The notes under the pieces: model-generated | Database searches by the model: none | Seen by the model: the letters and a program-made list of their open reading frames with translations, nothing else | What the model was told of the DNA's origin: nothing | Shown here: piece by piece, positions 7,908-24,477 of the stretch | Numbering within the stretch: position 1 is the stretch's first letter | Layout: the number at the start of each line of letters is the position of its first letter | Assembly (NCBI GenBank): GCA_946619755.1 | Contig: CAMOMI010000001.1 | Span: forward strand, 33,441 to 97,440 | Length of the DNA: 64,000 nucleotides | Direction of reading: 5' to 3' | Source of the DNA: an uncultured Clostridia bacterium | Lineage (GTDB): Bacteria > Bacillota_I > Bacilli_A > RF39 > UBA660 | Position numbers and translations under genes: made by a program

Positions 7908-8183
7908 TCACTTAACATTTAATTTTATAATTGTACATCCTGAATTAAAATTATCCATTTTATATTCTAAAACATTTTTATTATGTTTTAATGCCTCATG
8001 AACTTCATTTTTGACTATACCACTACCAATCCCATGAATAATAACGATTGTATCATTACCTAAAATAACATTTTCCATAACAAAATCGTTGGTCATCATC
8101 CGTGCACTATCTCTATCATATCCGTGTAAATCAATTCTAGGATATCTTTCTAAAAAAATATCGTATACTTCATTTTTTTCCAT
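7908..8183 (-). CDS. Smr (small MutS-related) domain protein
   Basis: [11 protein letters not shown] ... [12 protein letters not shown] ... NSGCTII: Smr-domain signature boxes; 91 aa. Confidence 0.7.
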
Positions 8184-8193
8184 CTCATCACCC

Positions 8194-9414
8194 CTATAAC
8201 GGTAGTTCTATTATACAGTCAGTTCCTTTATTTTTAATACTCTCATATGTCATTTTGCCATTATGAGCCATAATTATTTCATTAGATAATGCTACTCCTA
8301 ACCCAGTACCATTTTTCTTAGTTGTAAAAAACATTTCCTTAATATTAGATAACTCTTCACTATTCATACCTATACCATTATCACTTATTTTAACAAATGC
8401 TTTATTAGCTTCTTGGAACAATTCTATATTTATTATACCATTTTGTTCTATTGATTCAACACTATTTTTTATTACATTAACAAATACTTGTTTAAGTCTA
8501 TCATAATCAGCCTGTAAATATACTTCTTCACAATCGCTTTTATATTTAAAGCAAATATTATTATCCCTCATAAGTATTTCAAAAGATTCATATATCTCAT
8601 CTAAAAGCATCACCAAATCTATTTCTTCTTTATTAACCTTAATCTTGCTATATTCCATAAAATCAGCAATAACATTTAAACTTCTATCAATTTCTGACTT
8701 AATAATATCAATGTATTTTCTACTCTTTAGCTTATCATCTAAATTAATCATATCTAGATATCCTTTACATACTGCAATTGGATTTTTTATTTCATGTGTA
8801 AGTTTAAATAAAGAGTCCTTAAGTTTACTATCATTACTAAACTTATTTATGGTCTTATATAAAGAACTAACATCACTAGCCAACTTAAATAAATATAAAC
8901 AAAAGAAAGTTATTCCATATATTATAAAAATATAAATAATTAACCCTAATAGTTTATGAATATCATCATAAGTATTCATAAAATACTCAAATGATATAAA
9001 GAAAGCTTGGACTATAGCACTAACTTTTAAAAATAAATAATTAAAATCTTTTCGTTGACAAAGTAATAAAAAAGTAATTAAATAGCCAACATACTTAATA
9101 CTCACGACATATACATTAATATCGTACATAATATAACTATAAATAAGTATAATTAATGAAACTATTACCCCTAATAACCATTCTCTTTTAAAATAACATA
9201 TAAGTATTGGAATATTACAAAGTAATAGCAATCTTCCACAAACAAAATTATACTTTAAACTTAAATATATTGATGTAATTATCGTTATTACAAAAAAAAC
9301 TTTTTCAATATTTCGATCATTTAAAGAATTATAACAACTAAATACCAAATACATTAGCACTGGAAATACTACTAAAATAATACTTAATAATACATCTTCC
9401 ATTATAATCACCAA
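8194..9414 (-). CDS. sensor histidine kinase, multi-TM intramembrane-sensing type; no response regulator in the window
   Basis: About 6 N-terminal TM helices then directly H-box FKLTHEIKNPIAVCKGYLDMI, N/G boxes ISDNGIGM and GTGLGVALS; no extracytoplasmic domain, HAMP or PAS. Confidence 0.8.
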   Translation of the reverse strand: MVIIMEDVLLSIILVVFPVLMYLVFSCYNSLNDRNIEKVFFVITIITSIYLSLKYNFVCGRLLLLCNIPILICYFKREWLLGVIVSLIILIYSYIMYDINVYVVSIKYVGYLITFLLLCQRKDFNYLFLKVSAIVQAFFISFEYFMNTYDDIHKLLGLIIYIFIIYGITFFCLYLFKLASDVSSLYKTINKFSNDSKLKDSLFKLTHEIKNPIAVCKGYLDMINLDDKLKSRKYIDIIKSEIDRSLNVIADFMEYSKIKVNKEEIDLVMLLDEIYESFEILMRDNNICFKYKSDCEEVYLQADYDRLKQVFVNVIKNSVESIEQNGIINIELFQEANKAFVKISDNGIGMNSEELSNIKEMFFTTKKNGTGLGVALSNEIIMAHNGKMTYESIKNKGTDCIIELPL

Positions 9415-9434
9415 ATAAATTATAGAATATCTTA

Positions 9435-9484
9435 TATGTCATATTTTGTCGAATTATGTCAAATTATTTAATTTTATGTCAAAA
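9435..9484. promoter_or_regulatory. five tandem 10-bp phased units T(A/T)TGTC(A/G)NNN upstream of the histidine-kinase gene
   Basis: tatgtcatat / tttgtcgaat / tatgtcaaat / tatttaattt / tatgtcaaaa in strict 10-bp register, 20-70 bp upstream of the HK start. Confidence 0.3.
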
Positions 9485-9499
9485 AAAATAAGCTTACGC

Positions 9500-9814
9500 C
9501 TATTTTAATTCTCTTATATATTTTTTTAGTTGCTTAGCATCAGGACCAAAGATAATCTTTAATTGATCATCTATTTCAACCACTCCTTGTGCCCCCAATT
9601 TAATAATTCCTTCTTTATTTGCTTTAGTAATATCTTTCAAAGTAACTTTAAATCTAGACATTTCCATCTCAGTTTCAAGAATATTATCTTTACCACCTAA
9701 TAGTTCTACAAGTTTATTAAACTCAAGAGCTAAATCTTTTCTGTTACTTTTAACAATCGCAAAAGCAATAATTAAGAAAAATACTATTATAAAAGCATAT
9801 TGATACCATTCCAT
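9500..9814 (-). CDS. membrane-anchored PTS EIIB(Glc)-like domain protein with the phospho-accepting Cys replaced by Glu (pseudo-EIIB)
   Basis: LVELLGGKDNILETEMEMSRFKVTLKDITKANKEGIIKLGAQGVV aligns along its length with PtsG IIB [45 protein letters not shown]; the Cys column is E. N-terminal single TM. Start set to ATG 9814 (GAGGTG RBS 6 nt upstream). Confidence 0.65.
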   Translation of the reverse strand: MEWYQYAFIIVFFLIIAFAIVKSNRKDLALEFNKLVELLGGKDNILETEMEMSRFKVTLKDITKANKEGIIKLGAQGVVEIDDQLKIIFGPDAKQLKKYIRELK

Positions 9815-9920
9815 GTTACACACCTCTATTTAAATTATACAATAAAATAAAAAATATAACAATAATATTGTCTAAAATAATCAAATTTGATATAATTAAA
9901 AAAGTAAAGGTGGTAGTAAA

Positions 9921-11240
9921 ATGAAGAAATTAAGTTTTCAAAAAATATTCTGCTTTTTAAGTTTTTTATTTATCTTATCATGTTGTGTCTTTTATGGTTC
10001 TAGATTTATAAAATTATACTTACAAAACAGAAAAATAGAAATTGAAGAAAAGAATTCTTTAATCAAGGTATTAAAGGAAAACAATATGGATAATGAATAT
10101 TTTAAATCAGTAAATGGTCAAAACTATTTTACTAGTAAAACTGATAATAATTATCTTCTTTATTCCGGTATTATATGGCGAATTATTAAAGTAAATGATG
10201 ATAATTCACTAACTGCTATTAGTGAAAATGCTATTTCATCACTAGCTTATGGCAAAGACAATAAGTTTAATGAATCACATATCTTTAATTGGTTAAATAA
10301 AAATGATAGTGATTATTCAGGTATTTTAGAAAAAAATTTAAACAATATTGATAAGTATTTACAAAAAACAACTTCTTGTACTGATTCATTAGATGAATTA
10401 TCTAATAATCCATGTAAAGAAAGCAATACAGATAATTACTTCACCCTATTATCAGTTATTGATTACTTAAATATTGGTTCTAAAGATAGTTATTTAGTTA
10501 ATGATGAATACTTTTATTTAAGCAACACTAACAATGAAAATAAAGTTTGGTATATTGATGATAGTGGTAAATCAAATCTAAGTACAGGTAATGATATTTT
10601 AGGTGTAAGACCAGTTATTACTATCAAAGCAAATATTGATTATGTAAGTGGTAATGGTACCATTAATAATCCTTATTTGATTGAAAAAGATAATGGCCTA
10701 TTTGGTAGCTATGTTAAATTAGGTAATGATATTTGGCGTATTTATGATATTAACGATAATGAAATTAAACTAATGCTAAATGATTATTTAAAAGTTAATG
10801 GCACTAATTTATCATACCGCTATTCAACTTCTACATCATATCATAATGATACTATACCAGGAAGTATCGCATACTACTTAAATAACAATTATTTAAATAG
10901 TTTAAGTTATAAAGATAAAATAAAAGAAACCAAATGGTCAAATGGTTATTATAATAGTACAACTGATTTTGATTATTCAAATTCTTTAAAAGAAACAGTT
11001 GACACCAAAGTAGCCCTAATGAGTGTTGGTAATATCTTTTTAAATAGTGAGCTAAATAATTATTTTACAATGACTGGTTCCGCAAATAGATCAAGCATGG
11101 TGTATACAACTCAAAAAAATGCTAAATTATACACAAAACAAATAGGCACTAGTCTAAATGTTGTTCCAACAATTGCTGTTGATAAAAATATATTAACAAA
11201 AGGAAATGGTACTAAAGATAGTCCATTTGAAATGGAGTAA
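9921..11240 (+). CDS. hypothetical secreted/membrane-anchored Asn-rich protein
   Basis: N-terminal hydrophobic anchor FCFLSFLFILSCCVF; 439 aa, no catalytic motif recognised; 4-nt gap to next gene. Confidence 0.5.
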   Translation: MKKLSFQKIFCFLSFLFILSCCVFYGSRFIKLYLQNRKIEIEEKNSLIKVLKENNMDNEYFKSVNGQNYFTSKTDNNYLLYSGIIWRIIKVNDDNSLTAISENAISSLAYGKDNKFNESHIFNWLNKNDSDYSGILEKNLNNIDKYLQKTTSCTDSLDELSNNPCKESNTDNYFTLLSVIDYLNIGSKDSYLVNDEYFYLSNTNNENKVWYIDDSGKSNLSTGNDILGVRPVITIKANIDYVSGNGTINNPYLIEKDNGLFGSYVKLGNDIWRIYDINDNEIKLMLNDYLKVNGTNLSYRYSTSTSYHNDTIPGSIAYYLNNNYLNSLSYKDKIKETKWSNGYYNSTTDFDYSNSLKETVDTKVALMSVGNIFLNSELNNYFTMTGSANRSSMVYTTQKNAKLYTKQIGTSLNVVPTIAVDKNILTKGNGTKDSPFEME

Positions 11241-24031: not shown

Positions 24032-24355
24032 TTATTGTTCATGTCCAAGTATTACTTTTTCTAGTTGACTTATTCTTCTAAGTAAATCAACATTAGTAAT
24101 TTCTTTCTCTCCACCTTTAACTGTTTCAATACTTGATTTTAAACTACGTACTTCTTGTTTTAATGAATCATTTTCATCATTTAACGTTTTATTCTCTTGA
24201 CTAAGTCTTTTTATAATATTATTGTATTCATTATAATCACGAATAATAATATCTAAGAATTGATCAACTTCTTGCATCCTATAACCTCTAGCATCAATCT
24301 TAAAATCTTTATCAAGAATATCCTGCATGGTAAGTGCAATCTTATCATTATACAT
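24032..24355 (-). CDS. gpsB: cell-cycle protein GpsB (DivIVA-domain)
   Basis: MYNDKIALTMQDILDKDFKIDARGYRMQEVDQFLDIIIRDYNEY matches the GpsB/DivIVA N-terminal lipid-binding domain; C-terminal coiled coil; start ATG 24355 with GAGGTG RBS; conserved gpsB-rnpB neighbourhood. Confidence 0.8.
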   Translation of the reverse strand: MYNDKIALTMQDILDKDFKIDARGYRMQEVDQFLDIIIRDYNEYNNIIKRLSQENKTLNDENDSLKQEVRSLKSSIETVKGGEKEITNVDLLRRISQLEKVILGHEQ

Positions 24356-24477
24356 ACACATCACCTCTAGTTTAATTATAAAATATATGTCTAATTTTGT
24401 CAAATTAAATATAACCCAATTAGAAAAGGCAGATAATATTTTAACACATTACCTACCTTTAGTCAAATCTACAAATA

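Follow-up and report, generated by a model that had tools for sequence, protein, structure and literature searches.

The 64,000-nucleotide stretch of contig CAMOMI010000001.1 analysed here (the window), from an uncultured Clostridia bacterium, encodes on its minus strand a small membrane-anchored protein that carries the IIB fold of the glucose-type phosphotransferase system (PTS), but lacks the cysteine through which such domains are phosphorylated. This protein, which we call pseudo-EIIB, belongs to a large and strongly constrained family, and its gene lies directly upstream of a gene for an orphan sensor histidine kinase that is very probably regulated by Spo0A, as judged from tandem Spo0A-type boxes in its promoter. 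We propose, with a probability of roughly 45%, a role for pseudo-EIIB as a docking or regulatory subunit, itself non-catalytic, which would act on this Spo0A-linked kinase or on its pathway. Related loci from other genomes, collected for comparison, are referred to by L numbers where they need to be told apart.

A glucose-type IIB domain without its phospho-cysteine

The gene and the parts of its product are as follows.

9500..9814, minus strand: gene for the 104-residue membrane-anchored, Cys-less EIIB(Glc)-like protein (MEWYQY...RELK), based on the open reading frame (ORF), PF00367, the PtsG IIB alignment, AlphaFold2 (AF2) with Foldseek, and dN/dS
9752..9808, minus strand: membrane anchor at the N-terminus (residues 3-21) with a predicted N-out/C-in orientation, based on hydropathy, charge pattern and evolution faster than that of the domain
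9509..9718, minus strand: cytoplasmic EIIB(Glc)-fold domain, residues 33-102, based on NCBIfam and PDB matches, AF2 and Foldseek
9653..9664, minus strand: degenerate active-site box E51-M52-S53-R54, with the Glu51 codon (9664-9662) in the Cys421 column, based on the PtsG alignment and on ortholog and family columns

Residues 3-21 form the sole strongly hydrophobic stretch of the protein, with a Kyte-Doolittle maximum of 2.33. No positive charges are found ahead of this helix, and K22, R25 and K26 follow it. Because positive charge occurs only after the hydrophobic stretch, the anchor is predicted to be oriented N-out/C-in, with residues 28-104 in the cytoplasm. A secreted protein or a cleaved signal peptide was ruled out on the same grounds, namely an n-region devoid of positive charge and charges located behind the helix.

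Several comparisons place the remainder of the protein in the EIIB(Glc) family, albeit at times close to or below the thresholds of the general models. The match to Pfam family PF00367 (PTS_EIIB) is marginal, with 27.8 bits for a gathering threshold of 27, and that to TIGR00826 (EIIB_glc), at 34.2, lies below the cut-off of 45.75. The C-terminal IIB portions of NCBIfam IIBC models match better (best 4e-13), and a phmmer search of the PDB identified the IIB domain of Escherichia coli PtsG (3BP8, 3BP3, 1O2F, 1IBA) at 3e-8, with residues 35-100 aligning over 66 residues without a single gap. An AF2 model built from a 37-sequence alignment (predicted local distance difference test score, pLDDT, 76) has the order of strands and helices expected for the EIIB(Glc) fold, namely four antiparallel strands in a sheet that has its helices on a single face. 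The best Foldseek matches of this model in the PDB are the EIIB(Glc) structures 3BP3, 3BP8 and 1O2F, with target-normalised template-modelling (TM) scores of 0.76-0.81 and a root-mean-square deviation of 2.4 Å over 72 columns at 35% identity. The original prediction, made from the letters alone, described one transmembrane helix followed by a domain that aligns nearly residue for residue with PtsG IIB; this description is borne out by the alignment, by the hidden Markov model comparison (narrowly so for PF00367), and by superposition on EIIB(Glc).

The active-site region is clearly recognizable and clearly defective. In the alignment of ETEMEMSRFK with the PtsG box, Glu51 falls on Cys421, Ser53-Arg54 on Thr423-Arg424, Lys56 on Arg426, and Glu49 in the column of Asp419. 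The phospho-cysteine motif N-x-D-x-C-x-T-R-L-R that characterizes glucose-type EIIB is thus broken at its Cys position by Glu51. The equivalent of Arg424 (R54) is nearly invariant in the family, and that of Arg426 is Lys here and Ile, Val or Asn in relatives. Both Cys and His are absent from the entire sequence, and phosphorylation in the manner of the PTS is therefore impossible, as had been predicted; phosphate carriage or phosphotransfer of the PTS type through this protein is excluded.

The second characteristic of glucose-type EIIB domains, fusion to or genomic association with EIIC or EIIA, is also lacking. In tblastn searches PtsG EIIC, Crr [EIIA(Glc)] and HPr gave no match in the window, EIIC, HPr and EIIA(Glc) gave none in about 0.95 Mb of related loci (including L001-L092), and no PTS Pfam family was found among the called neighbour genes of these loci. 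Pseudo-EIIB is hence a member of the EIIB family by fold and profile but not a functional one, as neither the cysteine nor the EIIC/EIIA association is present. The product of 9814..9500 is a glucose-type IIB domain held by a single-helix tether at the cytoplasmic face of the membrane. The searchable literature turned up no Cys-less or membrane-anchored EIIB tied to kinases or sporulation.

Family conservation and the residue in the cysteine column

The family was surveyed by a search of 1.84 billion representative sequences, a second profile search and a scan in which each species was represented by one genome. It comprises thousands of clusters at 90% identity, nearly all of about 103-110 residues, and its members (100-113 residues) share the plan of anchor plus domain. 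All originate from metagenome-assembled genomes of uncultured, low-GC gut bacteria, variously labelled as Bacilli, Erysipelotrichaceae/-ales, Tenericutes/Mollicutes or Clostridium sp. CAG:914. Seven locus contigs of low-GC Firmicutes type (L009, L027, L031, L061, L072, L074, L079) were deposited as 'uncultured Muribaculaceae', probably through mis-binning or mislabelling. In databases the proteins are named 'hypothetical protein' or 'PTS IIB component', and many relatives have no precomputed Pfam match.

The family is strongly constrained. Comparison of pseudo-EIIB with 39 orthologs gave dN/dS values of 0.02-0.2 with saturated dS, which rules out a pseudogene or relic, and within the protein the anchor evolves 2-5 times faster than the EIIB-like domain. 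Between the window and its nearest relative (L001), pseudo-EIIB is 96% identical, comparable to RecA (97% on the same contig pair) and above GlyA (89%). An identical copy of the sequence is also present on independent contigs. A decaying remnant of a PTS permease, or an artefact of assembly or sequencing, could be suspected from a Pfam score barely over threshold and from the relatives without a Pfam match. This suspicion is already refuted by the conservation of the family, i.e. by the number and uniform length of its clusters, the dN/dS values, the conserved promoter and ribosome-binding site (RBS), and the exact sequence recovered independently, and its probability is practically nil.

The column of the lost cysteine is informative. 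Among the 120 nearest database proteins (85-96% identity) it holds Glu in 119 and Asp in one, by which a sequencing error at this codon is ruled out and the predicted replacement of the catalytic Cys by Glu is confirmed. Over 80 species the residues are Glu (34), Asn (34), Asp (5), Thr (4), Ser (2) and His (1), and in remoter family clusters Lys, Met, Gln, Leu and Ile occur as well. Not a single Cys was found in this column in the 120 orthologs, in about 100 clusters at 50% identity, or in the 80 species. Since the column may be occupied by Asn, Glu, Asp, Thr, Ser, His or Lys, a phosphorelay role for this residue is ruled out. Cys-bearing relatives found in the same searches are only ordinary IIBC permeases or soluble proteins with 2-4 tandem IIB domains. 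The latter (P0148, P0153, P0159, P0185, P0203) are distant homologs with Cys-containing EIIB(Glc) domains and no EIIC, an unusual architecture. In one family member of 131 residues (P0271), the region of the GGKDN...box is duplicated within the polypeptide, one copy being of the Asn type and the other of the Glu type.

It had also been suggested that Glu51 mimics the phospho-state, and in its strongest form this idea holds that the mimic keeps the domain fixed in a signalling state of the 'phosphorylated' kind and that this is the point of its function. Glu or Asp is indeed fixed in the clade of the window, to which these two residues are limited, and 37 of the 39 species of the E/D type have the kinase adjacent. 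In the family as a whole, however, Asn is as common as Glu, Thr, Ser, His, Lys, Met and Gln are found too, and 15 species of the Asn type likewise have an adjacent kinase. As the rest of the domain is equally conserved whichever residue is present, the family has no need of the negative charge, and a required phosphomimic does not stand. The hallmark of the family, as read from these alignments, appears to be the loss of the nucleophile rather than the gain of a negative charge, and Glu51 is probably a clade-specific filling of a dead site and not an essential mimic. At most for the window's own clade is the phosphomimic weakly tenable, and as an explanation of function we consider it very unlikely.

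What is nearly invariant in the family is Ser53-Arg54, the GGxxNI turn and the LGAxG(I/V)VE strand. The conserved part thus includes the former active-site face (GGxxNI, Glu49 in the Asp419 column, Ser53 and Arg54), and this face is also the one contacted in the EIIA(Glc)-IIB(Glc) complex (1O2F). It might therefore be supposed that EIIA(Glc) or HPr continues to bind the dead IIB domain, which takes no phosphate from it, and that the protein acts as a PTS-coupled decoy or sensor that reports sugar availability at the membrane to the kinase or to another target, the more so as sporulation is repressed by sugar availability in many Firmicutes. Against such a coupling stand the failure to detect HPr, EIIA or EIIC in the window and in the related loci, and the lack of conservation of the second catalytic arginine (Arg426), replaced by Lys, Ile, Val or Asn; it is distinctly unlikely.

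An orphan kinase gene preceded by tandem Spo0A-type boxes

The features of the pseudo-EIIB promoter, the intergenic region and the downstream genes are the following.

9834..9862, minus strand: separate sigma-A-type promoter of the pseudo-EIIB gene, TTGTTA and TATAAT with 17 nt between them, then RBS GAGGTG; from a promoter scan
9437..9483, minus strand: four phased Spo0A-type boxes, TTTGACA, TTTGACA, TTCGACA and TATGACA, spaced by 20, 10 and 10 bp, at 9483-9477, 9463-9457, 9453-9447 and 9443-9437; from the sequence and relatives
9482-9453: alternative overlapping promoter, TTGACA-18-CATAAT; from a promoter scan
9419..9424, minus strand: -10 element TATAAT of the kinase promoter, 12 nt past the last box; from the sequence, the 11-12 nt geometry recurring in relatives
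8194..9402, minus strand: orphan sensor histidine kinase of 402 residues, HisKA + HATPase_c (Pfam, hydropathy), start probably ATG at 9402, RBS GGTGA
7908..8183, minus strand: Smr-domain gene (PF01713), 10 nt past the kinase and probably co-transcribed with it, kept downstream of the pair in many relatives (synteny)

The kinase gene begins 97 nt downstream of the pseudo-EIIB gene on the same strand. Hydropathy analysis indicates that the first 175 residues of the kinase form 6-7 hydrophobic helices connected by short loops, leading directly into the phospho-acceptor helix. No receiver domain was found in the 64-kb window by tblastn with Spo0A as query. The original prediction of a histidine kinase without a response regulator in the window, separated from the upstream gene by a phased repeat array, is therefore correct in both respects, and the array can now be matched to tandem Spo0A boxes. 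Some relatives of the kinase carry the automatic JGI annotation 'sporulation sensor kinase B', and the polytopic architecture is similar to that of KinB.

On the coding strand the 85-nt spacer reads TTTGACA-N13-TTTGACA-TAA-TTCGACA-AAA-TATGACA-N12-TATAAT. Read on the opposite strand, the repeat unit TTCGACA becomes TGTCGAA, the 0A box recognized by Spo0A, and the kinase promoter conforms to a tandem TGNCGAA arrangement of 7-bp boxes at 10-bp phase near the -35/-10 region. The abrB boxes form a head-to-tail tandem with a 3-bp spacer. In spoIIG the penultimate box lies 22 nt from the -10 element, the same distance as in the kinase promoter. The likeness to the tandem 0A-box promoters (abrB, spoIIG, spo0A Ps) thus extends to the 7-bp TGTCGAA boxes, their head-to-tail order, the 3-bp spacer and the overlap with the -35 region.

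The tandem pattern is found three times in the window against 0.18 expected. In the relatives, 2-4 copies of TTCGACA occur at 3-nt spacing, the final copy ending 11-12 nt ahead of TATAAT. The related loci, 867 kb in total, contain 63 tandem matches (at most one mismatch; 49 loci), every one of them within 260 nt after the pseudo-EIIB stop codon. In addition, a metagenome scan found the exact 17-mer tandem 60-80 nt upstream of spo0A genes, in the same orientation, on three contigs of 26-28% GC (L105, L112, L183), and also at dnaA/oriC, parA/soj and comK. A reading of the repeats as simple reiterated -35 hexamers was ruled out, because the consensus, TTCGACA, matches the 0A box perfectly and differs from TTGACA, and because the same tandem precedes spo0A. 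Since in the related loci the tandem boxes are confined to the kinase promoter and the exact tandem precedes spo0A genes, the kinase is very probably a Spo0A-regulated gene.

The promoter of pseudo-EIIB itself is different in kind; it is strong-looking and without Spo0A-type boxes, and its arrangement of TTGTTA...TA(G/T)TATAAT plus RBS is kept in most of the 80 related loci.

Sporulation genes near the pair

In two relatives the pseudo-EIIB/kinase pair shares its strand with spo0A (L027:3695-4462 and L035:2984-3748), which is located 1.5-2.3 kb further upstream and is preceded by a TTCGACA box; in both, a large polytopic membrane protein of 474-484 residues is encoded between spo0A and the pair. 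Spore genes occur near the gene or the pair in other relatives as well, encoding CotZ, SASP, SpoIIP and Gpr (a CotO match is weak); gpr, SASP, spoIIP and cotZ were found in L085, L213 and L214. A gene of the FtsW/RodA/SpoVE family is located divergently upstream of the pseudo-EIIB gene in L085, L089-L092, L213 and L214, and cotZ likewise in L038, L054, L063, L067, L087 and L213. A divergent neighbour of the FtsW/RodA/SpoVE or CotZ family is also seen in species without the kinase.

According to a comparative study, the uncultured orders RF39, RFN20 and ML615J-28 retain spo0A and reduced sets of spore genes, and the Erysipelotrichales are without the Bacillus 'sporulation sensor kinase' (PMC10868615). 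The step that activates Spo0A has been described as missing or lineage-specific (PMC10868615, PMC13492147). A tblastn search for spo0A gave no match in the 64-kb window, a result that speaks for the window only and not for the rest of the genome.

Persistence of the gene pair

Pairing was counted over 80 species loci, 76 of which are informative, the other four being too short to judge. A kinase of the same family lies directly downstream of pseudo-EIIB in 55 of the 76 (~70%). From the side of the kinase, two of three distant kinases have pseudo-EIIB upstream and the third (L215) has not. The outer flanks of the pair vary widely. In the window a secreted protein of unfamiliar function and NAGPA flank one side, and Smr-glyA the opposite one; in L085 and L214, divergent ftsW/spoVE and rpsT-gpr; in L091, divergent ftsW, then iPGM; and in L213 cotO-cotZ lies upstream. 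The pair has thus been kept where everything else around it has changed, at 35-50% protein identity, more persistently than drift alone predicts.

Several points nevertheless weigh against a functional link of pseudo-EIIB to the kinase and to sporulation. Firstly, pseudo-EIIB occurs without an adjacent kinase in 21 of the 76 loci despite at least 3.4 kb of downstream sequence, and the L215 kinase has the boxes but no pseudo-EIIB upstream. Because of these cases, set beside the 55 pairs, the adjacency is frequent and evolutionarily persistent, yet not obligatory, and the co-occurrence that had been named as a check holds to that extent. Secondly, the two genes are separate transcription units as judged from their sequence, each with its own promoter, and in most relatives a terminator hairpin of the upstream gene precedes the boxes. 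Thirdly, against the 96% identity of pseudo-EIIB to its L001 ortholog the kinase has only 63% (membrane sensor half 56%, catalytic half 70%), unlike what tight co-evolution with the kinase sensor would produce. Also, the boxes may either activate or repress, and in the window they overlap a good TTGACA-18-CATAAT promoter. Finally, a Pfam scan of the 64-kb window found no spore-specific family among its ORFs of unfamiliar function, and the window holds no hallmark spore gene.

An alternative explanation is therefore that pseudo-EIIB is a housekeeping membrane protein, e.g. of the envelope, of division or of the spore membrane, which acts independently of the kinase and is next to it through inherited synteny. 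Such a role would account for the solitary copies, the constitutive-looking promoter with a terminator in relatives, the RecA-level conservation while the kinase drifts, and the other recurrent neighbours (divergent ftsW/rodA/spoVE and cotZ). It does not account for the retention of the pair amid exchanged flanks (the window versus L085, L091, L213 and L214), and on balance we regard it as somewhat unlikely. The original proposal of a regulatory or signalling accessory rather than a transporter is supported in its negative half, as no EIIC, EIIA or HPr gene is nearby; its positive half is qualified by the separate transcription units and unequal evolutionary rates.

Proposed function and comparison with known systems

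In the proposed reading the kinase would take part in the Spo0A circuit, probably acting directly on Spo0A as its kinase or phosphatase while Spo0A feeds back on it in turn. Pseudo-EIIB would be a membrane-sited modulator of this kinase or of its pathway, the former active-site face (E49, S53, R54) making the protein-protein contacts. A broader proposal is that pseudo-EIIB and the polytopic kinase controlled by Spo0A boxes together constitute the sporulation-initiation module so far missing in Erysipelotrichia-related gut Bacilli, which have spo0A but no KinA-E, Spo0F or Spo0B. The dead PTS domain would then have been taken on as an adaptor at the membrane through which the phosphorylation of Spo0A is gated. 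It would pass on the status of the PTS or of nutrients, or else hold a component of the pathway at the membrane, much as Mlc is held by EIIB(Glc). This broader proposal is rather unlikely.

The closest structural counterpart is EIIB(Glc) of E. coli PtsG (1IBA, 3BP3, 1O2F), which has in common with pseudo-EIIB the fold, an ungapped alignment, the GGxxNI turn, the Arg424 equivalent and the cytoplasmic site at the membrane. It differs in possessing Cys421 and the conserved Arg426, in being fused to EIIC where pseudo-EIIB has a single-helix tether, and in the lack of PTS genes near the latter. The sequestration of Mlc by EIIB(Glc) (3BP8) offers a parallel in proposed function, as a membrane-tethered IIB domain serves there as a docking platform for a regulator and not as a carrier. 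A IIB domain on an unrelated membrane anchor suffices for Mlc sequestration, and the same architecture is the natural one of pseudo-EIIB. In E. coli, however, binding is switched by phosphorylation of Cys421; pseudo-EIIB is Cys-less, and no ROK/Mlc-type gene was seen nearby.

The kinase can be compared with KinB of Bacillus subtilis and its partners KapB and KbaA. KinB is likewise a polytopic kinase, in the range of about 400-430 residues, without a large extracytoplasmic domain, and a small accessory protein is encoded alongside it. KinB feeds the Spo0A pathway, in which we infer a place for the window kinase. On the other hand, KapB is a lipoprotein of unrelated fold that is co-transcribed downstream of kinB, and KinB feeds the Spo0F/Spo0B relay, which the Erysipelotrichia representative Turicibacter lacks. 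The orphan sporulation kinases of clostridia also have no adjacent regulator, but mostly contain PAS domains, whereas the window kinase has a membrane-embedded sensor only. The action of EIIA(Ntr) on KdpD and PhoR in E. coli is a precedent for a PTS-family protein outside sugar transport that binds sensor kinases directly; EIIA(Ntr) is soluble, has another fold and acts by its own phosphorylation state, while pseudo-EIIB cannot be phosphorylated. From these comparisons, pseudo-EIIB would appear to work most like the docking of Mlc to EIIB(Glc) and the small accessory proteins of polytopic kinases (KapB/KbaA for KinB).

If correct, pseudo-EIIB would illustrate clearly how a glucose-type PTS IIB domain can become a pseudo-enzyme in nature, in a large family conserved to the level of RecA. 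Where annotation pipelines list it as part of a PTS, the sugar-uptake capacity of these gut lineages would be overestimated. The kinase, in turn, would be a specific candidate for the step that activates Spo0A in gut bacteria of the Erysipelotrichia-like and RF39/RFN20 types. Sporulation governs the transmission and persistence of gut commensals, and the three-part set of kinase, accessory protein and promoter makes the question of the sporulation trigger directly testable in vitro.

Additional observations

The divergent neighbour of the pseudo-EIIB gene in the window (9921-11240, plus strand) encodes a secreted or anchored protein of 439 residues that belongs to no Pfam family. In L215 a protein of 411 residues (L215:2610-3845) takes the place of pseudo-EIIB upstream of the kinase, and its C-terminal motif '...NDPY(L/I)L...' is similar to that of the 439-residue protein.

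The sole other tandem match in the window is a weaker tandem box, TTTGACAAAATTAGACA, at 24388-24404 (minus strand), just upstream of a DivIVA/GpsB-like ORF at 24032-24361 (minus strand). On metagenome contigs of 37-43% GC, the exact tandem box, TTCGACAAAATTCGACA, precedes by 113 or 124 nt an ORF that recurs with a length of 504 or 575 residues and has no match in Pfam. The ORF is present at L102:270-1781 (minus strand), L098:1914-3638 (minus strand) and at least 15 more loci (L119, L128, L131, L134, L137, L145, L153, L156, L174, L182, L190, L191, L201, L202, L212), and represents a gene family, as yet uncharacterised, with an apparent tie to boxes of the Spo0A type.

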